Assembly: GCA_002344825.1 (NCBI GenBank) | Contig: DDUN01000034.1 | Span: 15,171 to 77,774 of the forward strand | Source: Candidatus Multiplicimicrobium inquinatum | GTDB lineage: Bacteria > Omnitrophota > Omnitrophia > Omnitrophales > Aquincolibacteriaceae | Direction: 5' to 3' | DNA: 62,604 nucleotides | Part shown: positions 1 through 27,013 of the stretch, in pieces | Numbering within the stretch: position 1 is the first letter of the stretch | Layout: each line of letters starts with the position of its first letter | Notes under the pieces: generated by a model | What the model saw: the letters and a program-made list of their open reading frames with translations, nothing else | Databases searched by the model: none | Told to the model about the DNA's origin: nothing | Translations under genes and position numbers: made by a program

Positions 1-3000
1 CGCCGGACGAACTCAAAAATTGCCCCACATCAAACACTGCAACTGCAGCTGAAAGCTCAGCCTCTTCTTGTTTATCTAAAAATGAATCAAGAGCCTGAAG
101 CCTTCGCCCCCATTCAACCCACGCCTCATGTCTCTTTACATACGTCCAAATAGCTTCCGCCAAAATATCAACCATGCGGTCAACAATCTTTTCATTTATT
201 TTGTCTACCGTAAAACTGTGTCCCTGCTCTTGTCCGTAACTCTCAGCCAATGCCAGCATCTCTTCTTTGTCAGACTGGAGCAAAGCAAGGAGATCTGCAT
301 CATTTAAACCGATTTTTTCTTTCTCACGCAATTCTTGAGTATTAAACACACTACGTTCTCCATTTCCAATTTTATTGGGAATAAAACCATTCTGCTGAAT
401 AAGCTGTCTAAGCTCTGCTGCAACATTTGAAATTTCTTTTTTTACAATCTTGGCAGCCTCTGAAACATCATTGGCGGCGGCAAGAGCATTGAAAAAATCA
501 TAAGAAACTGGCTCGGTTTGAAGATACCCATTAGAGTCAAGAAAAACCCGCATTTCGGAACGAGCACGAAGCGCTTTTGAAAAACCATCAAACCACGATT
601 TAAAATTTGTATCCGTAAATGCACTATCAGACACCATGTTTGTCGGCGACACGTAAGAGCTTAAATCCGCTCTCACTTGAGCAGAAAACTCTACCGCTTT
701 ATCACTCCAAAGATCATGAAATAAATCCGCGGCAATTTGATGCGTATTGATTACCCCATTATCATTTGCAGTCGCCCATAAGGTGTATAAAAAGTAAACC
801 CGATGTTTAGCGCTATCTTCAAGATCAAATCTTGCCCCACCCAAATCAATCAAAATCATTTTTTTTCGATCTTTTTGCCAAATAAAATTTTGATACCGAA
901 TATCCGATGGGGGTTTAAAATCAAGATCTTTTCCAACCCCTAATACGGTCCTCAAGTACCCGCGATATTCATCTAATGTAAGCTCAGATTCTTCCAGAAC
1001 TTCAGAAAACTGAATTCCGTCGATAAACTCTTCTATCATCCAATGAAGCCCGTCTTGTGTTTGACCTTCTGATAAAATCATAGGGACATACTGATGGCTG
1101 ATTTTTTTTAAATCTGCCGTCTCTTCGCTGGGAATAGTCCCGGCTACCCTTTCAACCTTAAACATAAGTGAAAGCGATCTCCCTGATACACGGCCAAAAT
1201 CAATTCGAAAGCCATACTTACTCGTTCCGTCGTATCCATTAAAAATTCTAGCGGTTCCATTTAAATTTAAATCTAATTCCTCATATCCAAGCCGCCTGAA
1301 GAACTCTTTTACATTTTCTATATCCTGAAACCGTGGGGAGCGCAGAACATTCATCACTGACCGGGTCGTCGCTCCCGGAACTCCTCCGTCCAAAAATGAA
1401 AGCGTGTCAACTTCGTACCGCATTTCGGAGCGGCGCTGATCAAGTGAACTTCTTTCGGCATCCGGCCAAAGAAGCGGCCTGTTTTTCCCGGTAAAATTCA
1501 GCCTGAATTTTACCGGGTTGTCTTTGTCGCGCCGCAAAACTAAGTGAGAACGGGAAACCGAAGCGTCTTGGACAATTAAGTCATTGCTGCTGCCCCGTCC
1601 GATCAAAACTTCATTTTTATTTCGCGCGGCGGTAAACTTAGATTGTTGACCGGAAACTTGGACGATCACATCAAGTTCGCCGGCATAGCCTCCATTTCTG
1701 ATTCTCATGACGGAGTTGCTGTTTGAAAGCTGAAACAAAAACGGCAGTAAAGCAGGATCCCAAAGAATGCCTTTTTCGCCCGCGCTCTTTAAAGCGATCA
1801 TAAAAGCAAGGTTCAAATCGCGCACAAACTGATTTCGAAATGAATGGCCTTCCGCATCAAATTTTGGCTCCATCTCATACTCCTCGTTCGGATCACGACG
1901 GACGCCAAAAGCCTCAAAAGCAAGTTTCAGCACTTGCTCTTTAAGAGCGGTGGAAACACCGTACTGAACGGCGGCGGTTCTTCGCTCAAAAAAATCTAAA
2001 TTTTTGTTAAATTCAGACTCCGGGTTCGCATCATTTAAATTGAAGTAATCGTAATATTGGGGAAGATCGGCTAAAAACTCTGTGTTTTGCATGCCATATC
2101 CCAACAAACTATCAAGCATAGACTTCGCAAACCACTTACCCGCATCATATTCTTTGCGTGCACGCAAAACACTAAGCACAGCGTGAAAGCGCTCAACCGG
2201 AAATTCCCGCATGAAAAGGGGGTAATTGCTGAATGGCCCTGGAAAACCGGCCGCCGACCATTCCTCTGTCTTATTTTTAGTACCTTGGCTTAAATCCACC
2301 ACCCAGTCAGCAATTTCTTCGGGCGATTGATCCGCCACGCGCATTTCGGAGCGCCCCTTCGACCTGGCTACGATCACATACGGAGGTGTTTTTTGGCCGA
2401 CTCCAAAACCGGTTGTTCCGCCATCGACAAACATCGCTGATTCGATACTATTGCGGGAAAGCCAGGCGTGAAGCTCCGTCATAAATGAATCTGTGGACAT
2501 CCCCATTTTTCCCATAAAATCAGGTCCGTAAAACTCCTTGAAGAAAAATCTGCCTAAGCGGTCATATCCAATCGCAACGCGCCGCCCCCCCTGAAGCCCC
2601 TTATGCCAAACTTCAATTCCCAGGTTGAGATCTTCCCCGATTTTGATCCAAGGTCCGGCCTGAAATCCGATCGGGTACAACTGCACTCCATAAAGTTCAG
2701 GATTTTCAGCATATTTTTGGTAGTCAAAAATATGCGGCCTGCCGGTACCATCAATAAAAAACATCGCTTTAGCCATCGCTTTTTCCGAGAGGTTGTGATT
2801 AAAATCAACGATAGGTTCTTCTTCCTGAAGTCTCAAAAATCCGGTGGGCTGCTTATCTTCTAAAAAGAAATTTGCGGGTGAAATAATTTGAGCGTCGGAA
2901 TCATTTTGCGCGTCTTCAAAACGCATGACCTCAATATTCCAAGACCGAAGATCAAAAAAGAGATCTCCCGAAGATGTGGTTGACGCTAAATCGGGCGAAT

Positions 3001-6000
3001 TGATGCCGATATTGACTTGCTTGAGACCATAATTAGCTACAAGTCCACCCGTTCCAATGCCAGCCGCGAACAGCAAAGACCGACGGATAGCTTCCCGGCG
3101 AGTTAGCGGCTGAGCAACTCCACGTGCTTCAGAGCGCGCGGAAACAACCTCTTTTTCACTTCTTGGTTTTGGCGCAAAAGCCTCCCTGGGTAAAAATCCT
3201 TTAGCGAAAACTCGCCCCAAAGCGAATTCTTTTCCATACTTTATTTTTCCAAAAATAAGCATTGCGAAAAAAATCAAAATTGGAGCTTCAATAACCATCA
3301 CAAGTTCTGCTGTGGTTAATCTGCCAATGAGGATATTGGTTCCTATCCATTTATTAGCTAACTCAACCCCAACAACCGAATACGCGTACACGGATCCGGA
3401 TAAAGCCAAAGACATTGAAGATCTTCCGACAGCTGTTGTCATATTCGAATAGCTTGACGGAGTCTTTTTAAAATTGAATATTGCTGCACGGAAAAGTGCT
3501 CCTATCAAATAAAGCACCGCTCCGGCAAAGAAGACCTGCACAGGAAGCCCTCCGTCGGGCGCAATACGGGCAGCCCACTGCGCAAACGGTAAAGCAATTT
3601 CTCTTTGATACCAACTTAAATTAGCAGAAGGGACTTGGTTTTCAACTTGTGCTAATTCAGACGAGAAAACTTCAAGCGGAACCGTAGCAACCAACTCAGA
3701 CTCAACGGCCGACGGTGTCCGAGCAACCGCGGGTAAATCCTGACGCGCGACCGCAGGCTGATCAAGAGTCGGAAACAATAAACTTTCCTCAAGAAACCCT
3801 CTTTCAGAATCCCACTTAGGAAGAGCCAGAATTTCATCCACGCTCGCCACTCTCGAACTTGTATTAGCTTGAGGCTCAGAAACAGCGGTCGCGAGCACAA
3901 CATTCCAGCCCTGTCTCCCGCCGTAGCCGAAGGTGTGATCTTTGATCGCGTCCGCTATCTCTTGCTTTTTTGAAGCCGGGCTCGGTTTTGTCCGAAAATA
4001 TTTGTCATTGAAAACTCCATCCTCAAGGTTTTGTGCCATATCCCGAAGGGTATCTCCGTTTTTTGCCATTCTTGACTTTACACGCTTCTCTTTTACAAAA
4101 AAGAAAAATGCATCCAACTCATAATCATCCATAAGGTCAAGTTGCATCACTCGATAAGCTAGGGCTCGGGCAATATATTCCGCCTGAAGACCAGCATCGT
4201 TTGGAAACCTCTTGATCGCCGCCTCCCGTAACTCAACAATCGCTTTGTAAGAAGGCTGACTTTCCCCCTGCGATGTTAGCTCAAGTTTTTTAGCAAGAAA
4301 CTCCTGGTCAATTCGGCGGACATCTCCTTCTTTGGAGGGATATCCAAGCCAGGTCATCACATGATCTCCCAGGGTTCTGGAACGCGTTACTTCATGCTGA
4401 AAAATACCTTTGGCAATATCAATCGAAGGATGCCCGGCTTCCTTCCAATTCTTCTGATCGGCATACTGAAAAAGTCCCGACTCCATTCCGGTTTGAAATA
4501 GGGCAAGGTCGTGAAGGTCTTTCTTCTCTTGTTCGCTCGCGGAAGGGTAAATTTGATCGATCACACTCATAATCGAACCGGAAACAAGTTTCGCGTTTTC
4601 ACTAAAATTTCGGCTGCCTAAATTGGCTTCAACCTGCAAAGCCATTGCAGCCGTTTTGTCTTTTTGCTGTCCTTGCGCCAAAAAGTCTCCGACTGAAATG
4701 GCGTGCACTACCGTCATAACAAGAAAATAACCCAAAGCGAGTACGATATAAATCCAGGGCTTGATTTTTTCTTGAAGAATTTGCTCCGGTGTTCCGGGAA
4801 TTAAAACTTCAAGTCGAATTCCTTCTTTGACCCCAACCTTCTTCTCAGAATTTGAGGTTCCTGCGCCCCACCACTCCGTTAATGTTTGGACCGCCCCGAC
4901 CACAAGCGCAATCCCCGCAAGATAAACGCCGACAAGAGGGGCAAACTTTGCCAAAGCAATCATGATTACCGCGGCAATCGCCGCTTTCTTTAAAAAAGGA
5001 ATTACTCGCGCCTCGGAGCGGCTTGCTTCTAACGAGATAGTTTCATTCAGTTTCTGCTCAGGAGAAATCGCGCTTACATCCGCTTGCTTCTCTTCAATTC
5101 CAAGGCGCTGCAATAAAAATTGCGCTACCCATTGAAGTGTCGTTTGCGTGTTGGGATTTAAAGATGACGCCTTCAGACTTTTGATGTGGTTACGCGTAAA
5201 ATAAATCAACCCGCCGATAACACCTGCCGCAACGACCAAGGCTGTCAGATAAGGCGCAAAAGCAAACACCGCCGGTAGAATCAACCCCAAACCACCCACT
5301 GCTCCAAGCGCCCCAAGCAACACCGGGACGACATAAGCTTGTTCTGATGAGTCTCTCTCTATTTGAGGATTGAGCCGCAGCATGTCGCCGATAATTTCTC
5401 TTTTCAAACTATCACTGTACTCTGCTTCAAGACGGGCAAGCCCGATTGTAATTCGGCTGACCAACTCACCTTCAAATAAGTGCTTTCTTCCAAATGCTGT
5501 GGTAAGCGCCTCGGCATCCCCATATCGCTGCTCATTGACCGCAGTAATCATTTTCTGAATTTCTTCAAAAATAGAGTCAGGGTCAAAGTCCTCATCCCGT
5601 ATTTCAGAGCGCGCAGGAGTTAGTTCATACAGCCCCACTGCGTAATTTGTGGTTTTATATCCATCTGCTCTCTCAATCGTATAATTTTTTTCAGTATCCT
5701 CCCAAATCTCACCCATGCTCACTTCCGGAAGAATTAAAAATACCTTTCCATTTGGTTTCAAGTACTGAGAGGCTTCGCCAAGGAATCGGCGGAGCGTTTC
5801 AAATCCGGGGTCATTTTTTGCGAGAGCTAAGTTTCCGCCGGACGCTTCTGAATACCAAGGCGGATTCCAAAAAATAACATCAAACTTTTCTCCGTCGCGC
5901 ACGGCTGAAAAAAGATCGCTTTCACGCGCGTCAAACTCATCGCCAAGCGCCTCTTTTGCGGCTTGCACCGCGCTGGGGTTAATATCAAAACCGATAAATT

Positions 6001-9000
6001 GAATTTGTTGCGGATTGCGCACTGCGGACTGCAACTCTTTTGTTAACACCCCCGAACCAATCCCCATCTCCAACACCCGAATATTGTCATTCCCCTGTTT
6101 TCCGGCGGACTGCACTATTTGAGCAATCACTCCGCGGACCAGCCCAGTAATCTGATCACCCTTGTTGATCAAAACAGGGACGACTTGTCCCGCTTGTTGC
6201 GGTCGCATCTCAGAGCGCACATCAAACTTAGAAAATTTTTCGGCAAACCCGCGAGCCGCTATAATCGCTTTAATTTGGTCGTTACGCGGTTTATCGAAAG
6301 CTTTACTCAGTTCCGCAATCCGCCCTTGAGGAATAAGCCCTTTCATTTCCGCCCAATACTCTTCCGTCGCGCTTCCATAATCTTTCAGCTTGGCTGATGA
6401 GGCTGCTTTTAACTCTGCGGTTTGGAGTTTTTCGCCCACCAAATTTTCAAGATAAAGATAGTTTTTAACAAACCTCTCAGCTGGCAATAAATTCCAATCT
6501 TGCCGTAAAATTCTTTTTGCCGAACCTATATCAAGTTCCGCTGTTTCCTGTTGTGCCAGTTTCGAACTCGAGGCGGTTATCAGCGGAATATCGATCCTTA
6601 GAAAAGGTTGATCTTGTCCTTCGCTCAAGCGTAACGCCAACCGGCGCATAACCAGAGGCTGTCTCTGCCCCTTTATAACCCTTCTGAACCCCGACCGAGG
6701 CAATTCGACGTTAAAGAAATATTGAGGCCATAAGCGTACGAGCTCGTCTTCTACCATTTCCACAGGATTAATCGGAACGATGCTTTCGGGAACCGCCAAA
6801 ACCATGTCCAGGTCATTGATTAACCGTGTATCAATTTTTCCGTCGGCTTCGAGAGAAGCAGCAGAACCGTCGATAAAAATAACCGCCCCCGGCAAAACAG
6901 CCTGTACCGCTTGATCAACCGCAGCAAGCAAATTTTCCAAGTTAAGAATTCCGTCTTCGCTAATAACTTCTCCGGGTCGCGCTTCGGAACGAACCCGATC
7001 TGCTTCACTTCCAATTAACCCAGTAAACCATGCTGTGTTTTTTAGTTTTATAGAAAAAGCTGTAAAAATAGAAATGGTTGCGATAAATTCAATAATAATG
7101 GGTATTTTAGAAATAAGAGGATCACCAAGACCTATACCTAATAAAATAAACGAGTTTGTCAAGGAATGCATAGCCATCGGAGCAAGAAGATTTCCTGTCC
7201 GATGATAGAGATAAGCATAAGTGACCCCTGCGGAAAAAAGCTGTAAAAAAATATAGGCTGTAACAGCAATTCCACCCGCTCCAAATAAAACACCATGAAT
7301 AACAGCAAAGAGAAAAGCACTCGCACTTGCTGAAGCTAAAAATCCCATTCCTGAATCCATCATTTTCTTAAAAATTAACTTCCTAAACATTATTTCTTCA
7401 ATGATGGGCGCCAGAATAATCGAAGAAAGAATACTTGCTGTTGCTGCACTCAGCCCTAAAGCCCCCAACAAGGAAAGAGACACGGGAATCACAACGATAA
7501 GCATGAAAACTATGACGAGAGCTGGAGCAAAAACACGAATCTGCTCTCGGACAAATTGAAATTCTGTGTTTATTCTGTTTTTAAGAATCGACCCAATGTT
7601 ACTCCATGAAACAGCACCTTCCGCGGGCATTTCAGAGCGGCCCCCGAGCACCTCTTCGACAGACTCAGAACTTTGAGTCCCAGCGGAAGAGGTTAACTCT
7701 GTCCGAGCTTCGGAGCGGAAAGAAGCTGCCAGCGCCTTAAGTTCTTCTATTCCGCTAAAAATTTCTCGCGCTTCCCGAATCAACTCATTGTCTTCTCCAT
7801 CCGGAATACTCCAATTTTCTTTAAATTCACTCCATGTTTGATTTTGAGAAGCAACGGACAGCTCGAAAAAGAGCCGTTCTTTTAACTTTCCACGAAAAAA
7901 ATCCAGATCCGCAAGGATTTTCCGATTCTCAGGAGTGGCAAGTAATTTGAAGATGGCTCGTACTTGCACAGCTTCTTGATCTCCAACCGGGTCAGCTGCA
8001 TCCAGGCCCGCTTTCATTAGCGCCACTGTTTGCTCTTGTGGAGTTAAGCCATACCTGAAAATTGCCCGAAGGCCTCGCAAAGCCCGATTAAGGCTAACAG
8101 AGCCTGTCCCGCCCCATATAAGTCTTAAATTCGAAAGATCATCCAACGCATTTGAAATTATTTTGAAATCAGAGCTTGAGCCAACATCATCATCCAATTT
8201 AATTTGAAGATATTTTTGTCCGCCATTTTCTTTAACTTGAACATTTAAAAAAAGTTGATTGATTGTATAATTTTGCTGTGTCAATTCATCAAGCCACTCT
8301 ACCGGTGTAATTCGCGCGGCAAACGCGCTCAAAGCATCTGCCACATCATGCTCGCCCGGATTTTGTCGAACAACCAAGTCAAGATCGGACGCAATATCTT
8401 TAAGAGGACTTTCTTTTAAAGCCCCGCGCGCTGCTAGCAAAAAATAAATAGCAGCGCTTCCAAAAATAGTAATCGAAGTTCCGCTTTGTAGTTTTAATAA
8501 GCTTTCTTCAAGTTCTTGATCTAACCAAATTTTGATGCTTTCATTTCCAGAAGAATGTGCGATTTCATATTCTTGAACCCATGCAGGCGCTCGAAATTCG
8601 GAGCGAGATTTCAACAGCATATTTACGCTAATCGGATAAATCTCTCCTTTACTGATGGCATATTGAATCAGTTTGCTTCGTAAAGTTTTTTGAAAAACAA
8701 CCATTTCACGCAACTCGGACACAAATTGTTTAAGCACTCTATTTTCAAAAATAGTCACGCCAACAGCACCTTCATTGATCTCGCTTGAATTCACCCTGAC
8801 AATCAACCTGGCCACACTCTCTAAAAATTGTGTCTGCTCTGCGGCAACCTGTTCAGCGGCAGCAGCAGCTATGCTGACATTTGCCGTAGTGCCGGAGGCC
8901 TGATACTGAAGGTGCTTTCTCGGGAGTTTTACCCAAGTCATATTCTGAGGTGTTTTAAACTCAGTGAAGCCTGCTTGTTTTCCTATAAAAATATTCTTTA

Positions 9001-11902: not shown

Positions 11903-12167
11903 TATCTTTTTTGTGCCAACACACTATATATGCGGTTAACTAAGTTTCTCTTTCTTAAAAAAATATAACCAATGGAATTATTAAAATAAATTAAAAATGC
12001 TAAAATGATAGTTTTTGATAGTTAATGCTATATATAAATCACGCTTTTGACCAAATCCAATCCCTCCCTTGAGCTTACCTACTCTTGACCCCCAATTTAC
12101 ATGTTTTGCCAAGACAGAGGCCGATACATGAGGCGAGAATGCCGCACTTAAAAAAAGGAGGATTCCT

Positions 12168-15572: not shown

Positions 15573-15749
15573 ATGAAAACGAATCTCGATACGACACATC
15601 GTCTGATTCGGCTGGTCTTGGGGGTAGCTCTGGTAGTTGCCGAGTATCAATTGAAAGTCCATATCGGACTTTTCTATTTCGGCATTTTACTGGCATTAAC
15701 GGGGATTTTTGGTTTTTGCCCGCTTAAAGCGCTCTTTAAGAAGAGCTAA
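15573..15749 (+). CDS. DUF2892 (YgaP-like) small membrane protein, 58 aa
   Basis: Unlisted because it is shorter than 60 aa. AAAGGA lies upstream of the ATG. Product MKTNLDTTHRLIRLVLGVALVVAEYQLKVHIGLFYFGILLALTGIFGFCPLKALFKKS, with the characteristic G-F-C-P-L motif. Confidence 0.6.
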   Translation: MKTNLDTTHRLIRLVLGVALVVAEYQLKVHIGLFYFGILLALTGIFGFCPLKALFKKS

Positions 15750-15766
15750 GCATCAGACTCAAAATG

Positions 15767-15799
15767 GGGGCAGAGCATTCGCGCTCTGCCCCTATTTTC
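15767..15799. terminator. Intergenic hairpin, possibly a bidirectional terminator
   Basis: Stem GGGGCAGAGC (15767..15776) pairs with GCTCTGCCCC (15783..15792), leaving a 6-nt loop, with A/T-rich flanks. It sits between the convergent genes ending at 15749 (+) and 15803 (-). Confidence 0.5.
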
Positions 15800-15802
15800 A
15801 TT

Positions 15803-17539: not shown

Positions 17540-17588
17540 GAGAAATCAGCTCCGGAAATTCCGGATTGAACCGAGTCTTTCAATGAAA

Positions 17589-17723
17589 TCAGCCGTTGGC
17601 CGGCTTATCTCCCTCGGTGTGGGAAGCGGCGTTGTCGGGACCATGTCCGGAACAAGCCAGCGCAGAAACCTGAGTCAAAATCAAACAAGCAGCAAGAACC
17701 AATGCAATTTTAAATGAGTTCAT
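17589..17723 (-). CDS. Small putative lipoprotein (44 aa)
   Basis: A perfect AGGAGG lies 6 nt upstream of the ATG at 17723. Product MNSFKIALVLAACLILTQVSALACSGHGPDNAASHTEGDKPANG, with a lipobox-like ALAC. It sits immediately upstream of the permease gene. Confidence 0.4.
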   Translation of the reverse strand: MNSFKIALVLAACLILTQVSALACSGHGPDNAASHTEGDKPANG

Positions 17724-18160
17724 ATCCCCTCCTGAAAGGTAATGATCAATATAGCAGAAAGAGGCGGCAAATCAATAAGCGGCTCAAAATGACGGCTCTA
17801 TTGTTAATAAAAATTTAATTTTTCCTGCTTTTTCTATTGGAAGAATTCCGTGCGCGAACCTTACGGAGACTTTTCCGAATGACACGAGCTTTTTTTAATG
17901 CCGGTAAAGGAGCGGAACCGCCATCACCTCTTGAGAATAATCCGGCCCGGTGCCGGGCGTCCGTTTCAGAAAAAACAAACGCACCGCTGTAAGCTTCGGA
18001 GCAAGAGTAAAACCCGGTCCTTATGATTTGCGAATCCGAGAATTTCTCGCGTTTCAAAAAAAACTCCTTAGCTATCCAAAAAAAGGCGTCTCCATCCGCC
18101 CGCCATCCCCCGGGGGAAGGGGGTTGAGGGACAGCGAAACGGATGAAGCGCTTAAAATCA

Positions 18161-21100
18161 TTATGCTGAAGTTTGAGTTACCTTCACAACGTCATAGAGC
18201 TGACTAATCCATGCTGAAATCTGAATCCAACGCATTCCGGGCAAGTTTAACCGCTGCGGCTGACCTAAAACTAAAACGTGTCCCGCTGCCATCGGCGCGG
18301 AAAGCAAAAGCATTTCATCATCGGCCTCAGAGGGTTTTTCTGGTGATTCAACCTGAATCACATTTGTCGGATCAAACTCTGCCCCCAAATAATTTCGCAT
18401 CCAGCTTTCAGAAGATGCCTCCGAAAACTCAAAACTAAAAATGCCACGGCGTATTTCAGCGGCCAGCTCACGCGAATAAAGCGCTCTGTCGATTACGTTT
18501 TCCGCGGGCGCCCGCATAACAATCCGAACTCCAGCAGGCATCTTCGCCATAAACCGGCGAATCCATTTCGGATCATAAGGACGTTCAAAAATCACAACGC
18601 CGCTGTCTGAAATCTGATTGCCCAAAATGCGCGACGAAGCTTCCTGTAAAGTTCGCTTCGGCAATGCCATTAGCTCACGCATTTCAGAACGCATCTGATC
18701 AGCCTTGATACCGGAACGCATTGCGTCTTGCGCCTGCAAACCAGATAACAAGCCCGCCCCTTTCACTTCTGATCTCTCCGCAAGAGAAACTTGTCTAACT
18801 TCACTGCGGCTAAATAACTGATAAGCCACAGCCTTCACAAACTCCTTCGGCTGCGAACGATATCGGTCAAAAAAATCCGCCATCTCATCCGGCTTTATTT
18901 TTTCTCCGTACGCGTTCTCATCCGAATGTAAAGCAGCTGACAAAGAAACAAGCTTTTGCCGATAGGGCTCTGCGATTTCAGGCTCCATTCCGTTTAACCC
19001 GCGTGAGTCTAGTTCTCGCCGAATAAATTCGGCCGTCGCATATTGAATCTCCGGTTTAGCCGAAATCCGGCCGCCTTCAAAGCGCACCTCTTTTTCTACT
19101 TCCGCAAATTGGCGTTCTTTTTCTTGAATAAATTCTCGCTGAGCTTTTTCTAAGGCAGCCTGAGCCTCTTGAATCGCACGATCCATGGCATCAAGACGCG
19201 GATTTTTCTTCATGCGCGGCGCGGATTGAGCGGGCGGACCTTTCCGATTGGGATCAGGAAAGTGCATATAGTCCGGCGGCTCAATGCGTTTAGGCTCTAG
19301 CCCTTCGATCCGAATCGGCCGCAAGATACTGTCCATGACCTGTAAATGCGGCAAAAGATGGTCCGCAGACCGTGGTGACGCGGTCGTGTGCGTTCCCGCG
19401 CCGGAACGTGTATTGTTCGGGTTAAACTTAACGATATAGCTCCAGGGGCGATACCAAACCGGGCGCGCGGTATAAGCGGCAATACTGTGAATCAAAACAT
19501 ACCCGGAAAGAACCAAACGAAAATCATCCAACGCCAACCCAAACAACTGCTGAGCCAATCTTCTCTTGGAAATATCTCCTTTAGTGGCTGTGCTAATCGT
19601 AATATGCTGCTGTGAAGCTTTTTCACTTTTGGATCCTTCGTCACCGATTAAAACATTGTGCGCCCCCACCAACGACAGACCGAATAAATAAGAGTAAGGA
19701 AACAAAACCTGCGAAAGAATCGTAATCAATTGCTTGAAAACCATTTGAAGCGCATCGAGGTCATCCGCCAAGGCCGGCACACCGCTTTTATTAAGAAAGC
19801 CAAGATTAATCCAAGCTCGGTTTCCGCCAATTTGATCATCTAACATTCTATCCGCGCTGGTTGCCTCCGCATGAGCTCCATTAATCCCATAAGATTGAGA
19901 AAAGCTTTTACGGAACACTGTTTCTAAAATCTTGCCCACTTCTTCCTGAACTCCGACAAAAGAAAAAAACTTCATTCCGCCGCGATCAAAAAAACTTCTA
20001 GTATTCCCATCCCGCAAGCTTACAAGCCACCGATAACCCAAAGTAAAAATGGGAAAAGCAAAAAACATATAAAAAAGAGCGTCGCCCAATCCCGGAAGGA
20101 AAAATATCTGGGCAGCAAAAAAAGTCAGGGAAAAAGTCCAGACGGCCGCTTTTTGATAGTCGCGTGTCTTGCCTGAAAACGCATGACGCTGGGTTGATTG
20201 ATAAACGGCGATACTCCATGCCGTAATTGCAATCACGGTAAAAATAGCCAAAAATAAAGTAACCGGAGAAAGCGCTAAAACGGCAGACACATAGCCTCCC
20301 AAACCATGCAATACCGCAAATAGACTGGGCACTTTCCCAGCCACGGTTAAGCCGATATAAACCCATGCCGCCGCCAAAGAAACAGTGCTCTCTGAGATGC
20401 GGCGCCCAAATGATTTTCCGGCTTTGACTAAGTTCGTATGCGTATTTTCGTCATCGCTTTTTTGACCCAACACCGCGGGAGCTGTTTGATCAATAAAATG
20501 ATCCCATTCTTTTTCAAGAAAATTAATATCGTCATCCGTAAACTCACTTCCAAAAATCGGCCGCCCGGCGATTTGGGAAGGCAAGCTCCGCACAGCTGAT
20601 GAAACGAGCTCCATAAAAGTTGCGCGGGTAGAGGCGTAGGCCCCCATTCCCAGTTCCGTCGGACTCCACTCGGTCCGTATAATTAAAGTTCGCTCAAGTC
20701 CCACAGCGCGGCTCATTTGACTGTGCTCATCCGCCGTCGCGACAAAAAGCTCTTCGATCACACGCGCAAGCATGAGAGCCCCTGTCGAAGAGTTAAAATG
20801 CTGCCCGGATCCGGAAGAAGCAATCGCAACCACAAAAGGATTGGTCAGGCTCAGCTGCTCTTTAAAGCCTTCCACATCCATCTCTCCCGGAGGCAAAAGT
20901 TTTGAAGCATCCTCTTTATCTCTTAAATGCGCATTCGCTTCGCGGTCAATCTCGTTGGAATCGTAAACACGTGTCTGAAAATGCGGGTAAACTTTTTTTA
21001 GAATTTTTTCAATCATTTTCAAAATTTGCTCATTTTTTTCTTTTCCGAAAAAAACCGCGTCATAACTGTGATGAGGCTCTTCGTCTGCTTGCGGCAGGAA

Positions 21101-24100
21101 CGACTGAATCAACTGAAAATCCAGCCGATTCTCCTTCAAAGCGTTCAGCAGCGGCTCTTGGCTTTTCAATAAATTAGCGGCCGCTAAATCTCGATAGTCA
21201 GATAAGTCGTATTCCGACAATAATTTAATTGAAAATTCTGTCACAGCATTTCTTATGGTTTCCTGGGAAATAGATTCTTGATTATGAGATGAATTCAAAT
21301 GCCTTCCCGCGATTTCCAAAGCAAAAGGCTTGAGCACGCTTTTCACTACATCAGGATTCACGATTAAATTACTGATATCACGGCGGAACGCGGCCACCAA
21401 AATTTGTCTCGCCGACTTTTTTTGCTCTTCCGTCGCATTTACCAAGCCCAAATCCGCTAAAAATGATTCCATTTTGACTTCCGCCCATTTCATAAAAACA
21501 TCGTCTCCCAGCCCGCTTTCAATACCGACGCGGCTCTGCCGCATAATCAACCGTCCGATTGGCCCGGCAAGAATCACTTTGATAATTTCCAGCATCACAA
21601 AGAAATTATGTTTCTCTGCCGTGTAAGGAGGCATTTTGGGACGCCTCAAATCGCGCGGGTCTTTAAATTCATCGCGGATAACTTTCAAATAAGCCGGAAT
21701 GGAATTTAATTCAAGCTGCGCGGGGTCTTTGTTTTGAGAAACTTCAATCGGCTTAGCGGGACGGAGCCGGGCATAGATTTCATCCTGGGTTAAAAATCGC
21801 CCGGATGCGCCGTTTTCATCTTTCAGCGTCAGCGAATAAACTTTGATACCGATAGTCTCCCCGTCATGCGTCACCTCAGCAACTTCACCCAGCCCGTTTA
21901 AATCCAAAAGAAACTCATACCCATCCACGCGCCCGGCATTGGCCTCAGAGTTAGACCCTACCTGAACCATGCCGTTTTTTTTACCAAAACCCAAAGTAAT
22001 GTTTTGTCCCAGCGAAAAAGAAATTTTTGTGCGCGGCTGAAGCGAAGAATACGCGTTAACACCGGCCGAACCGCGCACATTTTTGGAAATATAAATCCAA
22101 GAATTTAAAAGGTTATGTCGCAGAAAAGCATAAACGGCCGTTTCAATGAATTGCGCGCTTTCCTTTTCACCCATTTGTTTGAAAAGAGCCTGAGCAGAGC
22201 CGGAAGCTTGATTCATTTGAGTTAAAATTTTTTCCTGCAAACCGCCCAAGTCCTCGTCCGAAATGTCGGCCAAATCCGTAAGACCGCGAATTTTGTCCAT
22301 TCCGCCTGCTTGAGCAAAAGCTTGTTCAAGAAATGCGGCTAAAACTTTCACTTCGCCCGGTTTTAATGCGTGGTTGGGAGCTTGTGCTTCTTCAGCATCG
22401 TTTTTGGGAATAAAACCGCCGAAGTAATATTCAAGATCGGGCGCCACCGAGGCGTAATGGGCAAACTGTACCGTGTCTTCCCAGCGGCCCTGAACATAAA
22501 CTAAATCCTGAACCCCTGATAATTTGGGAGAGTCTCCCGTTGTCGGATTGTAAATACCTTTTATTCTTTTGAGCACCCAGGCAATTTGCTGATTCGAATA
22601 AGCTTTTCCATCCAACTCTATTTCGAGCGCTTCTTTCTGTCTGCGGGAAAAGAAGGCGCGAATCCGCTCAGAAAAAGTTTTTACCAAGTCATTAAAATCG
22701 CCGTTATGCCCCAAAACGACATAAACTTTTTTAACAATATATTCAAACCCTTTCGCGGTGCCGGTTAAAACTTTAGACTCACGCTGTCCCACCCAGCCAT
22801 GCGGATGCGCACCGTTTTCAATCGCGGTAATTGAAAAATCGCCTTTTTTGGCACCTGCGGTCGGAAAACGCAAATGGTCGCCAATATGAATGTAAAAAGG
22901 AATCTTCATCGCTCTGGCTCTTTTTAAAACAAGCGGCTTAAATTGATTCTCAAAAACATCTGCGGCGGTTTGCCGGGAATCAATGTAGTATTTTTCGTGA
23001 ACGATCTCCTGGTTTCCGTTTAAATCTTCCATAATGGCAAAAAATCCGATGGCGATTTTTCCGCGTTTTTCAGTAACGATGATACTTTCTTTCAAACGGG
23101 CGAGATATTTATCTAAGTCCGCCGGCTTTTTCACAAATCCCATGATGGAGGTATTACCGCAAGCCGCAAGCCAGTCCTCGCTCGGCGGATTAAAAATATC
23201 GGAAATAGAAGCGGCAATCTTGGCGAGAATGCCGCCCGAGACACCTGTGTAAAAAAACATAATCGGAATAAATAAAAGCAAAGTTTTTCCGAAGAAAATA
23301 ACCAGTGCGGCAAAAGCCATCACGCCCAAAACAAAACCCGCGATTCTTACGGCTCCAACCCCTTTTGTTTCAGATTGATCCAATTGGACATAAGCGGAGG
23401 GCATAGGCGTAAACGGCATCAACCCTGCTAAGAGTCTGAAAATATTACGATTACCGGTCCAGTTGTGAAAATTTTTTATGGTTTTTACCTTCCCCATAAA
23501 AGCGCTGGCAATCAAATGCCCCCACTCGTTAAGCATCATCCCCGCTAAGTAACCGGCACGCAGAGAAATCAAAAGAAGCGCTCCCGCCGCGGCTGTAAGT
23601 CCGCTTGTTGATAAAGCAGCGGCTAAATCCAAACCTAAAACAACGGGCAAAGTCATACCTAAAAACGGAAGGCTCAAAAAGGAAACGACTGCGACAGTAA
23701 GCACAATTTCAAAAACCGGAAACGTCCAACTGCTTGTCTTACCCGAAAAAACAGGCTCTGTATCAAGCTCGGCGGTATTCAACCCATCATCCGTAACCTT
23801 CTCATCCAACTCAACGGGAATGGTATCGGGAACTCCCTGCCGTATATGTTTCATGCGCGCTACTACGGCCTCCCAATACTCAAGAGCACCCGCGCCAAAA
23901 CCCTCCGGATTAAGGTTTTGAATTTTTGACAGCCTCTTGCTGATTTCTTCCAATTTTTCAAATCCTTCGTCACCCCCCCATGTTTTAATAACCGCGAGAT
24001 CCGGCAAGCCTTCAAACCACCGACCTGCCTCTAAAGAACCGCCTCTTTCTGCTTCGGTTAAGATCGTTTTATGAGGCAAAACAGGTGCCTCCTCTACAAT

Positions 24101-27013
24101 TTCAGGCAAAAGAATTTTTACACTTTCAGATTGTGCCAGCGGGGCTTCTTTACTTAAGGATTTTTTTTCACCTGCCTGAATTAAGGCTTCAGCCCACAAA
24201 AGAGCTCCATTTTGAAACCCCTCTTTAAAATCTGTCCCTGTTTTTTCGCCCAAAATGATTTTTATGCGCCCATAACGCAATAAAAAATCAGGAATTTCTG
24301 CCTGAAGCAGCTGCGCTTCTATTTCCCCCAAATTAAGCCGGCGGATCATTTCAGCGGACATCTCTTTCTCAGCGAAAGAAAGTGCCTGGCGCCAATTTTC
24401 TATTTCATCGGGAGAACTCGGAAGATCTATTTGCCGTCCGGTTTTGCCCCCCTCTTGAATCAGTCGATTGTGCTCTCCCAGCAAATCAAAAACAGAGAAA
24501 CTATTTTTTTTATCGTTAACACCCGCTGCGCTCAAAGCGGCCAACGAAAAAATTAAATTCTGCCACAAATCTCTTTTTTCAACTAAAACCTGAGAATCTA
24601 AAAAACGCGGCACAAAATTATCTTCAACTATCCGATTTGTGAACCGCTTGGCAACGCGTTCCGCAACCGCCGCGGCATGCACTCCCTGACTGTGAATGAG
24701 GCTCATCCCGCTCAAATATTCTTCCCAGTAAATAAGCATCATAGCCCGCACCGCCGCGGAGCGATCTTTCCAGTTAGTCGAAAAGCGGATAATTTCAACC
24801 CTGCCGTTTTCATACTTGAAATCAAGCGCCATTCCCGCGGAAGAAATTTTTTGAATTTCATCCGTATTTTTCAAACGCAAAGATTCGGCAAAAACCTCAA
24901 GACGAAGAGCAAGGGCCCGCTTAAATTTTTCGATCTCTTCCAATGCTTTAAAATCACCTGCCCAAGTTATGCGCGCCAAATCGTCATCGCCCCTTAATTC
25001 GGAGCGGGCGGGTAAACTTCTTTTCCAATTTGGCAAAGCCGCTTCAGGAGAGCTCCCGCCTCTTCGAATCCAAACTTCACGGCCGTCAAACCGCATCATT
25101 GACGCGCCTTTTCCTGCCCGCGTTTTAGCGTGAGGCCCCGCTGAGGTTAAAAGCGGTGTTTGCCCCTCTGTTCCCAAAAACCAGAAAACAGTATCTTGTC
25201 CATCGGGTGAAATCCAAACCCGCGACCGATCTGAAAACGAATCAAGTTCTCTTAGCGCGGCAATCGCTGTATCGGACAAAACAAACGCGGATGATGTTAA
25301 AATTTGCTCAGTTTCCACCGGACGGCCGGAAAGCGCCGCCGCGGTGCCGGAAAGCAGCGCATAAAGCGTTTCCGGAAAATTTTTCTCCATTCGCCGGGGA
25401 GTCTGCAGCTGCAATTGCGAATGCGATTTGAATTGCGCGTCTTCTAAGTTTTCAGGTCTAACCCATTCCAGCTTAGAAAGCTGAGAGCTCATTCGTTTTT
25501 CGTAAATGGTCTGATACTTTGAAAAATCAGTGGTTTTAATTTTGGGGCGCACCACTTCATAACTGATTCCTTGCTCACGCAAAACACGCAAAAGACCGGC
25601 CGTATGAAATCCACCGATTACAAGTGCGCCCACCTTCTGATTCTCTTTCTTCAGTTCGCTTATGAAGTTTTGAGCCAACGCTTCATCACGGCGCATCGCG
25701 ATATGATAAAAACTCATCGCGGCAGTCATAGTTTCCGACAAAACTTTTTTCTCATCCGAGCTAAATACAGTTTGATTCGCTTTCCCCAATGCTTCCGCTT
25801 TAAACTCATCGCGACGCGAAAGAAACTCCTCATAATCTGAGGCCGTTAAACTGAGCATCACCAAAGAACGGGAAATATCAAGATTCTCAAGACGCCGGAC
25901 AATTTCTTTCTGACCGCTTTCCGGGCAGGCTTTTTCGGTTAACTCTTTTTCAAGCCTTGCGACTTCATCGAAAAGCCCTGTTCCTACCCGGCGCATAAGA
26001 TAGGCCGCCTTCAAAGCCGAGACAGTAACCGGGTAGTTTTTAAGCGCCGTAGGGCTTTCCTTCCAAAGTAAAACTTCTGTTTTAAGATCCGCATCAAGCG
26101 ATTCTCCGCGTAAAACTTTCTCACCATATTCCGCCAGCTTGAGTCCAAGCGCCCCCTTTTTCTTTAAACCACGAATTTCACTTTCCATGATTTCCGGGTT
26201 TACTTGATCCGAAAGCTCATGCGCTTTGCGCCAAAAGTCAAACGCCGGATAACGCCCCGTCAAACGATTATCCAATCGCATACTTTGAAGATTCAAAAGA
26301 TGCTTTTGCCAGTCTCCGTTTTCATGAGCCTGACGGGCGTGTTTTCTGAAACGCAAATATTCCACCGGTAAAATCTTCAGAGCTTCTTCTTCCGTTCGGC
26401 TGCGTACGGTATTCAGTATCTTCAGCGCATCATCACGTTCGTTTACAACTTTGAGAAAAGCAACACGGTCCGATTCGTAAAGCCCCATATCTTCAACTCC
26501 GCGAAGCTTAAGCGAGGGATGCTTTGTCATCTGTAAATATTCAGGCCCGCCGATCACAGCTTCTTCAAGCAAAGTTTCGGCAAGCATCGTACGGGCCGCA
26601 CGGTTGGGAAACGCAGCAACCGCGGAATGCGGTAAATCACCTTTGGCTCCCTCAAGACCGACGAACTGAAGTCCTAAGCGGGAAACCCAAAAATCAATAA
26701 TCTTGGCGGCAGATTTCTGAGCTTCAGGAAGCGCGTGAGCGTCCTGAACAATCAGGGCGCGGAAAGGGGCCTTACCGGAAAAAGATTCAACCCGCTCCCC
26801 CATTTGCGAAGGAACCTGAGGGGGATTAACCCAATTCATATCATTCAAAAGGAGCAAATCAGGATGGTTCGAAAAAATAGGGTCAGCTTGTTTTACGGAC
26901 GCGGTTCTTGCAGAAAACCATTCCGCGGCGGGCATACTCCATACCGACTCCGCAAAAAAAACGGGCAGCAGCAATAAAGCGACAAACCTAAAAAATGTCT
27001 TCCCTTCCCCCAT
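18161..27013 (-). CDS. Giant multidomain membrane protein B (about 2,950 aa; the ORF stays open upstream to 27313)
   Basis: The track ORF is 18161..27313. The likely start is the ATG at 27013, which gives MGEGKTFFRFVALLLLPVFFAESVWS (signal-like) and is preceded by a G-rich stretch. The N-terminal module is paralogous to giant A: IVQDAH (His 26735..26737) and IGGFHT (His 25604..25606). A central TM block contains LNEWGHLIAS, which resembles a degenerate M50B-like HExxH. A class-II (Ntn) glutamine amidotransferase-like region begins at AACGNTS (Cys codon 23159..23161) and contains GAHPHGW and GHNGDFNDL. An SIS-like motif VVAIASSGSGQ lies near 20800..20840. Further TM blocks follow, and RSE-x-R motifs occur near the C-terminus. 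Confidence 0.85.
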   Translation of the reverse strand: MGEGKTFFRFVALLLLPVFFAESVWSMPAAEWFSARTASVKQADPIFSNHPDLLLLNDMNWVNPPQVPSQMGERVESFSGKAPFRALIVQDAHALPEAQKSAAKIIDFWVSRLGLQFVGLEGAKGDLPHSAVAAFPNRAARTMLAETLLEEAVIGGPEYLQMTKHPSLKLRGVEDMGLYESDRVAFLKVVNERDDALKILNTVRSRTEEEALKILPVEYLRFRKHARQAHENGDWQKHLLNLQSMRLDNRLTGRYPAFDFWRKAHELSDQVNPEIMESEIRGLKKKGALGLKLAEYGEKVLRGESLDADLKTEVLLWKESPTALKNYPVTVSALKAAYLMRRVGTGLFDEVARLEKELTEKACPESGQKEIVRRLENLDISRSLVMLSLTASDYEEFLSRRDEFKAEALGKANQTVFSSDEKKVLSETMTAAMSFYHIAMRRDEALAQNFISELKKENQKVGALVIGGFHTAGLLRVLREQGISYEVVRPKIKTTDFSKYQTIYEKRMSSQLSKLEWVRPENLEDAQFKSHSQLQLQTPRRMEKNFPETLYALLSGTAAALSGRPVETEQILTSSAFVLSDTAIAALRELDSFSDRSRVWISPDGQDTVFWFLGTEGQTPLLTSAGPHAKTRAGKGASMMRFDGREVWIRRGGSSPEAALPNWKRSLPARSELRGDDDLARITWAGDFKALEEIEKFKRALALRLEVFAESLRLKNTDEIQKISSAGMALDFKYENGRVEIIRFSTNWKDRSAAVRAMMLIYWEEYLSGMSLIHSQGVHAAAVAERVAKRFTNRIVEDNFVPRFLDSQVLVEKRDLWQNLIFSLAALSAAGVNDKKNSFSVFDLLGEHNRLIQEGGKTGRQIDLPSSPDEIENWRQALSFAEKEMSAEMIRRLNLGEIEAQLLQAEIPDFLLRYGRIKIILGEKTGTDFKEGFQNGALLWAEALIQAGEKKSLSKEAPLAQSESVKILLPEIVEEAPVLPHKTILTEAERGGSLEAGRWFEGLPDLAVIKTWGGDEGFEKLEEISKRLSKIQNLNPEGFGAGALEYWEAVVARMKHIRQGVPDTIPVELDEKVTDDGLNTAELDTEPVFSGKTSSWTFPVFEIVLTVAVVSFLSLPFLGMTLPVVLGLDLAAALSTSGLTAAAGALLLISLRAGYLAGMMLNEWGHLIASAFMGKVKTIKNFHNWTGNRNIFRLLAGLMPFTPMPSAYVQLDQSETKGVGAVRIAGFVLGVMAFAALVIFFGKTLLLFIPIMFFYTGVSGGILAKIAASISDIFNPPSEDWLAACGNTSIMGFVKKPADLDKYLARLKESIIVTEKRGKIAIGFFAIMEDLNGNQEIVHEKYYIDSRQTAADVFENQFKPLVLKRARAMKIPFYIHIGDHLRFPTAGAKKGDFSITAIENGAHPHGWVGQRESKVLTGTAKGFEYIVKKVYVVLGHNGDFNDLVKTFSERIRAFFSRRQKEALEIELDGKAYSNQQIAWVLKRIKGIYNPTTGDSPKLSGVQDLVYVQGRWEDTVQFAHYASVAPDLEYYFGGFIPKNDAEEAQAPNHALKPGEVKVLAAFLEQAFAQAGGMDKIRGLTDLADISDEDLGGLQEKILTQMNQASGSAQALFKQMGEKESAQFIETAVYAFLRHNLLNSWIYISKNVRGSAGVNAYSSLQPRTKISFSLGQNITLGFGKKNGMVQVGSNSEANAGRVDGYEFLLDLNGLGEVAEVTHDGETIGIKVYSLTLKDENGASGRFLTQDEIYARLRPAKPIEVSQNKDPAQLELNSIPAYLKVIRDEFKDPRDLRRPKMPPYTAEKHNFFVMLEIIKVILAGPIGRLIMRQSRVGIESGLGDDVFMKWAEVKMESFLADLGLVNATEEQKKSARQILVAAFRRDISNLIVNPDVVKSVLKPFALEIAGRHLNSSHNQESISQETIRNAVTEFSIKLLSEYDLSDYRDLAAANLLKSQEPLLNALKENRLDFQLIQSFLPQADEEPHHSYDAVFFGKEKNEQILKMIEKILKKVYPHFQTRVYDSNEIDREANAHLRDKEDASKLLPPGEMDVEGFKEQLSLTNPFVVAIASSGSGQHFNSSTGALMLARVIEELFVATADEHSQMSRAVGLERTLIIRTEWSPTELGMGAYASTRATFMELVSSAVRSLPSQIAGRPIFGSEFTDDDINFLEKEWDHFIDQTAPAVLGQKSDDENTHTNLVKAGKSFGRRISESTVSLAAAWVYIGLTVAGKVPSLFAVLHGLGGYVSAVLALSPVTLFLAIFTVIAITAWSIAVYQSTQRHAFSGKTRDYQKAAVWTFSLTFFAAQIFFLPGLGDALFYMFFAFPIFTLGYRWLVSLRDGNTRSFFDRGGMKFFSFVGVQEEVGKILETVFRKSFSQSYGINGAHAEATSADRMLDDQIGGNRAWINLGFLNKSGVPALADDLDALQMVFKQLITILSQVLFPYSYLFGLSLVGAHNVLIGDEGSKSEKASQQHITISTATKGDISKRRLAQQLFGLALDDFRLVLSGYVLIHSIAAYTARPVWYRPWSYIVKFNPNNTRSGAGTHTTASPRSADHLLPHLQVMDSILRPIRIEGLEPKRIEPPDYMHFPDPNRKGPPAQSAPRMKKNPRLDAMDRAIQEAQAALEKAQREFIQEKERQFAEVEKEVRFEGGRISAKPEIQYATAEFIRRELDSRGLNGMEPEIAEPYRQKLVSLSAALHSDENAYGEKIKPDEMADFFDRYRSQPKEFVKAVAYQLFSRSEVRQVSLAERSEVKGAGLLSGLQAQDAMRSGIKADQMRSEMRELMALPKRTLQEASSRILGNQISDSGVVIFERPYDPKWIRRFMAKMPAGVRIVMRAPAENVIDRALYSRELAAEIRRGIFSFEFSEASSESWMRNYLGAEFDPTNVIQVESPEKPSEADDEMLLLSAPMAAGHVLVLGQPQRLNLPGMRWIQISAWISQLYDVVKVTQTSA

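Follow-up and report, generated by a model that had tools for sequence, protein, structure and literature searches.

Results

A short peptide separates the units of two giant Omnitrophota proteins

We analysed a 62,604-nucleotide stretch of the genome of Candidatus Multiplicimicrobium inquinatum (Omnitrophota; GenBank assembly GCA_002344825.1, contig DDUN01000034.1, positions 15,171 to 77,774), hereafter the window. It encodes two giant proteins, giant A and giant B, in which a pentapeptide of the form Arg-Ser-Glu-x-Arg is repeated. We find that this motif separates autonomous, interchangeable protein units and that it is conserved, exposed and specific to one family; we consider it a candidate cleavage site of a polyprotein. 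The two giants are read from the minus strand of the window, and the sites were located by six-frame translation in the frame of two long open reading frames (ORFs). All 16 pentapeptides of an original prediction, which had been made from the DNA letters, were recovered in this way, along with one further copy, RSEKE, that it had overlooked (Table 1).

The recurrence of the motif in giant A is far beyond chance. RSE[MAVILF]R was seen 10 times versus 0.03 expected by composition. Performing 3000 residue shuffles of giant A, we obtained a mean of 0.07 and a maximum of 2 copies of RSE.R, against the 10 present. The broader expression RSE[MAVILF][RKPQ], which the original prediction had proposed to count, occurs 12 times, against a shuffle mean of 0.10 and a maximum of 3. 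RSE is the most over-represented tripeptide of giant A (13 versus 1.3 expected, 10-fold), and R.E.R occurs at the 10 canonical sites and nowhere else in the protein. Apart from giants A and B, no real ORF of the window contains RSE.R. We also considered whether the motif is an artefact of composition or chance, or a leftover of internal repeats. The shuffles (≤0.1 versus 10-13), the unrelated flanks, the non-homologous modules and the conservation in orthologues rule this out, leaving it a practically nil probability.

Giants A and B belong to a head-cargo-tail protein family

Giants A and B are paralogues in an Omnitrophota-specific, multi-copy family of modular proteins. Scanning species-representative genomes with a profile of the N-terminal head domain, we found 273 relatives. 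All those with a named source belong to Candidatus Omnitrophota, and a genome often holds 2-4 paralogues. The first 671 amino acids (aa) of giant A and the first 769 aa of giant B are 22% identical (E=9e-15). The head of giant A is 60-74% identical to those of its syntenic orthologues (L001A, L002A and L004A) and 35-48% identical to those of P0001-P0020. Beyond the first motif, essentially no similarity is detectable between giant A and the syntenic orthologues.

The family head is ~650 aa long and carries a Sec-type signal peptide and three invariant signatures, HIQ[ND]AH.NY.AQ, [FL][VIL]EGA and GGFH. Giant A starts with the signal-peptide-like segment MNVWFKKLISVLVLSLFTVNTCFADV. The AF2 model of its head has a predicted local distance difference test score (pLDDT) of 76. 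None of 22 heads matched Pfam at E≤5, and the head had no match among PDB sequences. By eye, the head exhibits an H...E...GxxHxxG order, and Foldseek returned weak local matches to HopBA1 (prob 0.30) and EreC (E ~4-5). Sequence profiles did not place the head with the TraB/PrgY/GumN-TIKI-ChaN-erythromycin esterase type: there was no PF01963-type match, and hhalign against a YbaP alignment gave Prob <1%, with the helical insert removed or not. We treat the likeness as a faint hint.

At the other end, nearly all complete members carry a tail with an amphipathic helix and the terminus [ST]x[SAKQV][SA]A-COOH (for example ATSVAA, QTAISA and TQTSA). Giant B follows this pattern, as its RSEMR at aa 2875 is followed by a tail ending in ..TQTSA. 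The small head-less proteins P0029 and P0034 share the [SA]A ending. This ending resembles an ssrA tag or a substrate of a tail-specific protease, and it may be a C-terminal signal for sorting or degradation.

Complete members range from ~1000 aa, where head and tail are joined and often motif-free, to >3700 aa. The cargo of the family includes methyltransferase, APH-like kinase, PP2C, GNAT, FHA, CPBP and HExxH modules, transmembrane blocks and many modules of unknown type. A distant head clade (L150-L153, 27-31% identity, including Ca. Omnitrophus fodinae, ASOC01000015.1) consists of proteins of 3-4 thousand aa that lack the motif. We found no substitute repeated motif in the motif-less proteins L150-L153, P0041, P0042 and P0050. 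The giants are also almost devoid of Cys: A and B together hold 5 in 7017 aa versus a background of 0.70% in 18 neighbouring genes (p=2e-15), the family ranges from 0 to 0.3%, and the sole Cys of giant A lies in the signal peptide. At five loci (L082, L085, L087, L129 and L147), a second motif-rich giant adjoins the head-family gene on the same strand, forming tandem polyprotein genes. Different paralogues fill conserved chromosomal slots, such as those downstream of uvrD or of a PilZ/STAS gene. This head-cargo-tail family with its RxExR junction appears not to have been described before.

The general form of the motif, R-[S/A/P]-E-x-R, is specific to the family

We extended the analysis to 79 head-family loci, in which the motif takes the general form R-[S/A/P]-E-x-R, with 307 sites. 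The middle residue of R.E.R was Ser at 236 sites, Ala at 55 and Pro at 14, while all other residues together accounted for ~36, about the number expected by chance. Position 4 is usually occupied by V, A, M, S, T, L or I; the hydrophobic residue assumed in the original prediction is not required there, and relatives often have Ser. The residues adjoining the motif are mostly small, and the consensus is (small)-R-[S/A/P]-E-x-R-(small). Several proteins use a single flavour throughout, namely RAEKR in L124, RPEAR in L077, RSESR (nine copies) in L126 and RSELR in P0021, where 13 copies stand against 0.13 expected. As lineages with variant junctions we noted RAExR/RAEKR (L089/L100/L124) and RPEAR (L077).

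Two sites of one protein agree at both variable positions, x2 and x4, in 25% of pairs; the figure is 28% for pairs between paralogues of one genome and 9% for pairs between genomes. A flavour common to the paralogues of one genome points to a trans-acting factor that reads all of them; exchange of junctions within the genome could contribute to it.

We also checked the ordinary proteins around these loci. In 180,000 aa of flanking ORFs, R[SAP]ExR occurred 6 times versus 11 expected, and every flanking ORF with two or more copies was itself a further member-like giant. An equal motif density in ordinary proteins, which had been named beforehand as grounds for dismissing the motif as compositional, was thus not found.

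The motif coincides with the borders of self-sufficient modules

In 36 complete members, longer proteins have more sites (r=0.82), with about one site per 281 aa beyond the first ~790 aa. In many members the distance from the last site to the C-terminus is 302-324 aa, which is where the tail starts. In giant A, each of the domains recognised by Pfam or NCBIfam profiles (CPBP, methyltransferase, FHA and, weakly, a kinase-like domain) falls between two successive sites. The original prediction had placed the motif at every module boundary of both giants, and this is shown for giant A only. Giant B has one site after the head and three in its last 215 aa, with 2066 aa between them that contain neither a site nor a recognisable domain.

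The methyltransferase module allowed us to follow the borders across proteins. Performing a HMMER search with aa 1100-2294 of giant A, we found that the best matches spanned just the interval from RSEMR (aa 1896) to RSEIR (aa 2098). The module is flanked by the motif on both sides in 7-9 giants, in ranks from the second module to near the C-terminus. The giants found through this module, independently of the motif, contain 4-13 copies each versus ~0.1 expected. Moreover, two homologues that stand free, P0028 (216 aa) and P0035 (202 aa), have their first residue at the column of the upstream motif and stop within a few residues of that of the downstream motif. The free-standing HemK2-like methyltransferases P0029, P0031 and P0033, homologues of the window module at 5612-6202, have N-terminal signal peptides. 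A signal peptide is odd on an enzyme that depends on S-adenosylmethionine (SAM), and it suggests delivery to another cell.

A comparison of two related giants, P0023 and P0025 (58% identical overall), showed that their six shared sites are 100% conserved amid linkers that are 22-86% identical, and that the modules exclusive to P0025 are delimited by the motif. The motif is also retained in the syntenic orthologues and at hundreds of sites in the family. The conserved inter-module joint that had been suggested is thus borne out, and the lack of conservation in orthologous giants that would have spoken against it was not observed. Scanning the genomes of close relatives with the segment of giant A from the CPBP to the methyltransferase module, we found no match; the cargo is too divergent.

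Structure prediction placed the two sites around the methyltransferase module in low-confidence linkers, a check that the original prediction had proposed. In an AF2 model of aa 1846-2150 of giant A, both motifs (model residues 51-55 and 253-257) had pLDDT values of ~35-58, while the methyltransferase core reached 91-97. This core superposes on entire HemK2/N6AMT1/KMT9 proteins, and Foldseek matched it to N6AMT1, KMT9 and PrmC (E ~1e-11, TM (target) 0.70-0.74). Order-promoting residues dip near the sites. Finally, a hydrophobic signal- or anchor-like stretch follows within 50 aa at 14.9% of the sites versus 6.1% of random positions, a 2.4-fold enrichment; in giant A, such segments come after the sites at 5006 and 3122.

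Codon usage inside the motif is constrained

The codons of the motif are strongly biased at its first two positions. In giant A, 12 of 12 sites read CGY-TCY-GAR, although CGY makes up 36% of its Arg codons and TCY 35% of its Ser codons. Over 53 sites from the window and relatives, the first Arg (Arg1) was CGY in 91% versus a background of 45% (p=5e-12), Ser was TCY in 77% versus 33% (p=5e-11) and the last Arg (Arg5) stayed at background. The 307 independent sites gave the same picture for Arg1 (CGY in 83% versus 41%, p=7e-52), while Arg5 was CGY in 26% and AGG in 32% versus a 14% background. At 8 of the 10 canonical sites of giant A, Arg5 is CGA or CGG, both of which are rare in neighbouring genes.

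The original prediction had taken the variation in codons between copies as a sign of selection on the peptide. We agree as far as Arg5, which switches between CGN and AGR, and position 2, which alternates between Ser, Ala and Pro, are concerned. However, the bias at Arg1 shows that codon choice is not free, and it indicates that a constraint on the nucleotides or on translation acts in addition to that on the peptide. Since the amino-acid pattern outlives codon change across deep divergence, we regard selection as acting primarily on the peptide, with the nucleotide bias as an added layer.

Several sources of the bias were tried and rejected. The context of the RS dipeptide was excluded as its cause, as was avoidance of GATC or restriction sites for CGY. 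A genome-wide, uptake-like DNA word was rejected as well, with 3 copies of CGYTCYGAR outside junctions in the 62.6 kb. We found no RNA structure and no excess folding energy at the junctions. Internal translation starts 3′ of the motif were not apparent, as Met, Val and Leu as start-like residues were not enriched there.

Features of the two giants and of the rest of the window

The features of both giants are collected in Table 1. The CPBP domain of giant A is at aa 1488-1584 inside a cargo module of aa 1422-1637; NCBIfam CPBP families match it weakly. In the methyltransferase domain (aa 1924-2073), Pfam MTS and Methyltransf_31 scored above cut-off and the NCBIfam HemK-family match was sub-threshold. 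The labels "peptidase", "Tat-like" and "glycosidase-like" of the original prediction were assigned by eye and found no profile or PDB sequence match. Neither the "peptidase" module (aa 672-1099) nor the kinase-like module matched Pfam or PDB sequences, the latter having a weak NCBIfam kinase match alone, and the "glycosidase-like" module (aa 2923-3183) had no significant match in Pfam or PDB sequences. Two further modules, aa 1100-1395 (7718-8605) and aa 1638-1895 (6218-6991), share a G[SG]...D.D pattern (IFGSAAIYF...DLDLV and IDGSAASL...DLDMV). By eye, and without a profile match, this pattern recalls nucleotidyltransferases of the Pol-beta type.

Giant B more likely starts at ATG 27013, ahead of the signal-peptide-like segment MGEGKTFFRFVALLLLPVFFAESVWS, than at TTG 27313.

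Table 1. Features of giants A and B in the window, each protein listed from its N-terminus
Feature	Position	Strand	Remarks
Giant A polyprotein ORF	2..11902	-	at least 3967 aa; ATG 11902; open frame 2..11923; C-terminal part lies past the left end of the window
Giant A head domain, aa 1-671	9890..11902	-	signatures LQIQNAHTNYEAQ, TIFVEGASEE and LMTGGFHTEG; GGFH at 10253..10264
Junction RSEAQ	9875..9889	-	head / module 2; degenerate last position; CGT TCT GAA
Junction RSEFR	8591..8605	-	giant A; CGC TCC GAA
Junction RSEAR	7703..7717	-	giant A
Junction RSEMP	7625..7639	-	giant A; degenerate last position; directly 5′ of the CPBP module
CPBP / Rce1-like intramembrane protease domain	7151..7441	-	PF02517, E=8.5e-16, 58.5 bits versus cut-off 22.4
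Junction RSEAR	6977..6991	-	giant A
Junction RSEMR	6203..6217	-	borders the methyltransferase module upstream; in the pLDDT <50 linker of the AF2 model; 8 other giants have the motif at the same alignment column
HemK2/N6AMT1-like SAM methyltransferase domain	5684..6133	-	cargo module aa 1896-2097; NPPW motif; Pfam and NCBIfam
Junction RSEIR	5597..5611	-	giant A; downstream border of the methyltransferase module
Junction RSEAR	5006..5020	-	giant A; followed by the signal-anchor-like segment VIPFLKKAAIAAVIMIALA
RSEKE, non-canonical	3149..3163	-	giant A; AGA AGT GAA; precedes RSEAR 3122 by nine residues; probably decayed, or a copy by chance
Junction RSEAR	3122..3136	-	followed by the twin-arginine-like segment TRREAIRRSLLFAAGIGTGGLVA; Tat likeness by eye, no profile match
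Junction RSEMR	2339..2353	-	giant A
FHA domain, aa 3428-3464	1511..1621	-	cargo module aa 3184-3490; PF00498, 28.9 bits (module alone as query)
Junction RSEMR	1418..1432	-	FHA module / kinase-like module; weak kinase-like NCBIfam match at aa 3593-3653
Junction RSEMR	548..562	-	giant A
Giant B polyprotein ORF	18161..27313	-	3050 aa from TTG 27313; no Pfam or NCBIfam match
Giant B head domain	25007..27013	-	GGFH at 25604..25615; paralogous to the A head; 55% identical to the L001B head fragment
Junction RSELR	24992..25006	-	giant B; head / cargo
Site RSEVR	18794..18808	-	giant B; CGC AGT GAA
RSEVK, non-canonical	18761..18775	-	AGA TCA GAA GTG AAA; possibly a decayed or chance copy
Junction RSEMR	18677..18691	-	giant B, aa 2875; cargo / tail
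Giant B tail domain	18164..18676	-	C-terminus ...VKVTQTSA-COOH; 81% identical to the L001B tail

All substantial ORFs of the window are on the minus strand, and the GC skew is negative throughout. The genes around the giants are ordinary housekeeping and transport genes and encode, among others, TypA/BipA, two RluA-type pseudouridine synthases, a DEAD-box helicase, FeoB, an ABC transporter and LemA/TPM. The window TypA is 95-99% identical to those of Candidatus Omnitrophota metagenome-assembled genomes, of which L001 and L002 are syntenic with the window; this places the window on an Omnitrophota chromosome.

A third giant, giant C (53589..62210, minus strand, 2873 aa), is Ser/Asn/Thr-rich with 17% Gly and is devoid of RSE. 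It is followed by an ORF for a ShlB/FhaC-type POTRA transporter (51759-53528, minus strand), and together they resemble a two-partner-secretion (TpsA/TpsB) pair that has no relation to the family with the motif. ARAGORN called a tRNA-Pyl (anticodon CTA) at 51511-51604 (minus strand), in the overlap of a GHL10-like ORF and the TpsB ORF; this call is probably a false positive. The block at 37891-42093, with a GC content of 0.40 versus ~0.47, resembles an acquired islet for restriction or defence: it contains a D12-class N6-adenine DNA methyltransferase, a DndB-like protein, an ORF of unknown function and, on the opposite strand, an ORF6N-domain gene.

Discussion

Proposed cleavage of the giants and competing explanations

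We infer, at about even odds, that an endopeptidase recognises the motif and divides the precursor into individual proteins. A polyprotein is suggested because the separator coincides with the termini of free-standing homologues and because signal- or anchor-like segments are enriched after the sites. In the proposed mechanism, a Sec-targeted polyprotein encoded on the chromosome would be cut by a sequence-specific endopeptidase acting in trans, which would release the separate proteins. A substrate strand that lies extended in a protease cleft shows alternating conservation, as in PEXEL. Positions 1, 3 and 5 of the motif are conserved as in such extended-strand substrates, so that a scissile bond after Glu, with Arg at P3, Glu at P1 and Arg at P2′, would be plausible. 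A cut after the last Arg (Glu at P3, Arg at P1 and a small P1′) would be equally possible and would recall factor Xa sites, which also have Glu at P3. We assume that the products would act outside the cytoplasm, perhaps on a host or prey cell, because Cys is nearly absent and because the heads and the free-standing cargo homologues have signal peptides. The cargo set (methyltransferase, APH-like kinase, PP2C, GNAT and FHA) resembles an effector repertoire, in line with the proposed host-dependent lifestyle of Omnitrophota. A fuller version, which we hold tentatively and at slightly worse than even odds, is that Sec-targeted polyproteins are cut by a dedicated endopeptidase at R-[S/A/P]-E-x-R while the same 15-nt junction doubles as an in-frame microhomology splice point for module swaps. 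Such a microhomology role would explain the codon constraint.

Several observations weigh against cleavage by a dedicated protease. Searching the giants with Pfam and NCBIfam, we found no universal protease family. The CPBP and HExxH modules, which the original prediction had considered as processing enzymes, are occasional cargo in a minority of the members. The head signatures are kept with or without the motif, as in five complete head-plus-tail proteins with zero sites and in the motif-less L150-L153, so the head is not obviously a dedicated cis protease. The likeness of the head to a TraB/TIKI-type hydrolase found no support in hhalign and faint support in Foldseek. Near the 79 loci, no dedicated protease or secretion genes are conserved, and the synteny is that of housekeeping genes (uvrD, glycine-cleavage genes, pheST, mgsA and PilZ/STAS). 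A promiscuous cellular protease would predict depletion of the motif in ordinary proteins, and the depletion that we saw (6 versus 11 expected) is not significant. Lastly, a model of a pure protease site does not predict the codon bias at Arg1 and Ser.

An alternative explanation is that the motif is bound and not cut. It would be the docking site of a common partner (for example a chaperone, a factor for secretion or insertion, or the head or tail itself), and the giant would stay whole as a membrane-anchored multi-enzyme scaffold. The position of the motif in exposed linkers, the flavour of the variable positions common to the paralogues of one genome and the fruitless protease search of the giants would all fit, and most long proteins of Omnitrophota are predicted to be membrane-associated (bioRxiv 10.64898/2026.06.07.730766). 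However, one copy per border of unrelated, self-sufficient modules, at the point where free-standing homologues end, is what a separator looks like, the signal- and anchor-like segments right after the motif fit new N-termini best, and a candidate binding partner is not evident. We regard docking as unlikely, though as the likeliest of the competing explanations. The codon bias invites another explanation, that the 9-15 nt of CGC TCC GAR NNN CGN are a microhomology or recombination site for in-frame module swaps and the peptide is a passenger. The strong bias at Arg1 and Ser is not matched at the last Arg, the breakpoints of module insertions and deletions fall exactly on the motif, the cargo turns over much faster than the head, and two sites have the same first 9 nt in 22% of pairs within a protein versus 9% between genomes. 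Yet R-x-E-x-R is kept by codons as different as CGT CCA GAA GCA CGT, CGC GCG GAA AAG AGG and CGC TCG GAG CTG AGA. Switching between AGR and CGN at Arg5 and between Ser, Ala and Pro at position 2 likewise preserves the residue class and not the DNA. Neither inverted repeats nor structure was found in the flanks, and the 9-mer is not over-represented outside junctions. Recombination at the motif may well be a consequence and an evolutionary bonus of the junction and not its selected function, and as a sole explanation we find it rather doubtful.

A signal to the ribosome would account for the asymmetry between Arg1 (CGY 83%) and Arg5 (AGG 32%): preferred, fast codons followed by a slow, often rare NGG Arg codon might cause a pause for folding or membrane targeting or, at the extreme, a 2A-like skipping of the bond. 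The motif is always in frame. However, it does not look like the sequences known to cause stalling or 2A skipping, the nascent chain ahead of it shows no conservation, RNA structure was not found, and the codon bias is a tendency with exceptions where the peptide is strict; we consider such a signal improbable. The original prediction had also mentioned a modification motif. Phosphorylation of the Ser by kinase-like cargo and its reading by FHA would use modules that recur as cargo, as do the PP2C modules, and a Ser-dependent self-cleavage by N-O acyl shift is a related option. But Ala or Pro replaces Ser at 69 of 305 sites and throughout L124 (RAEKR) and L077 (RPEAR). With Ser replaceable, whole lineages having RAExR or RPExR, neither a phospho-Ser switch nor self-cleavage by a Ser nucleophile is likely. 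FHA domains, besides, bind phospho-Thr and not phospho-Ser, and most family members have no kinase module, which makes any role that needs the Ser very improbable.

Comparison with known systems

The giants share several traits with the MARTX toxins of Vibrio and relatives, which are likewise giant secreted proteins with conserved ends, a recombining array of unrelated effectors and short cut sites between modules. MARTX proteins have Gly-rich RTX repeats at both ends, whereas Pfam and NCBIfam scans detected no repeat family of the RTX, haemolysin or MARTX type in A or B. An internal CPD (Peptidase C80) cuts MARTX after Leu; here there is no such Pfam match and the junction has no Leu requirement, and the near-total lack of Cys excludes a Cys protease in these giants. 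MARTX proteins leave through type I secretion encoded by adjacent ABC/MFP genes, whereas the giants have housekeeping neighbours (in the window and at the 79 loci) and Sec signal peptides. Viral polyproteins cut by 3C-like, Gln/Glu-specific proteases resemble the giants in having one ORF for autonomous proteins, a short lineage-specific motif in flexible linkers and commonly Glu or Gln at P1. The giants, in contrast, are cellular, chromosomal and multi-copy, their module set is highly variable between related genomes, and their cleavage is what we infer. No embedded chymotrypsin-like or virus-type protease common to all members was found with Pfam or NCBIfam.

By analogy, the motif may also be likened to PEXEL, the host-targeting motif that plasmepsin V cuts in Plasmodium, and to TEXEL of Toxoplasma (RxLxE/Q/D or RRLxx), pentapeptides conserved at positions 1, 3 and 5 in signal-peptide proteins that act in another cell. 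Those motifs occur once, ~15-30 residues after the signal peptide. RxExR is repeated internally, first at ~650 aa from the N-terminus, and belongs to bacteria that have no homologous protease. In multi-core precursors of ribosomally synthesised and post-translationally modified peptides (cyanobactins) and in fungal repeat proteins processed by KEX2, tandem products are flanked on each side by the same short protease site, but those products are short peptides or near-identical repeats and not whole, unrelated, enzyme-sized domains. The attC sites of integron arrays are structured palindromes of tens of bases, unlike these ~9-15 nt with no excess folding energy and unconserved flanking bases. 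The 2A/StopGo sequence D(V/I)ExNPG|P has a conserved upstream context; the junction differs in sequence, and its upstream residues are not conserved.

Closest by origin are the published giants of Omnitrophota (Archaeovorins, dockerin-type and tandem-repeat proteins). They come from the same phylum, have a signal peptide and/or transmembrane segments, and have been proposed to function at the surface or on prey and to be processed by proteolysis. They differ in having repeated Pfam domains, dockerins, a C39 or subtilisin-like peptidase and SecA-like domains, and in length, with 30-147 thousand aa versus 1-6 thousand aa here. The literature on Omnitrophota giant genes proposes that their products are cleaved, but the papers on these other classes give no motif for a junction or a cut, and one account states that the cleavage points are unknown. 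Text searches with peptide strings and for polyproteins found no prior description of a junction or cleavage motif or of polyproteins in Omnitrophota.

Significance of the junction

R-[S/A/P]-E-x-R thus provides the first precise, testable candidate processing sites for Omnitrophota giants. At the junctions, the giants can be divided in silico, which yields units for annotation and structure prediction; together with the head and the tail, the junctions define a new phylum-wide protein family with several copies per genome. The codon-level constraint is a second, independent puzzle. If the dedicated-endopeptidase reading is true, the family would be a cellular counterpart of both viral polyprotein expression and the effector arrays of MARTX. 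If cleavage is true, the giants would be genuine polyproteins expressed from a bacterial chromosome, which is rare. Cleavage would also bring a new protease specificity of possible biotechnological use, and the cargo would represent fast-evolving, probably exported effectors (methyltransferases, kinases, phosphatases and acetyltransferases) in uncultured episymbiotic or predatory bacteria.

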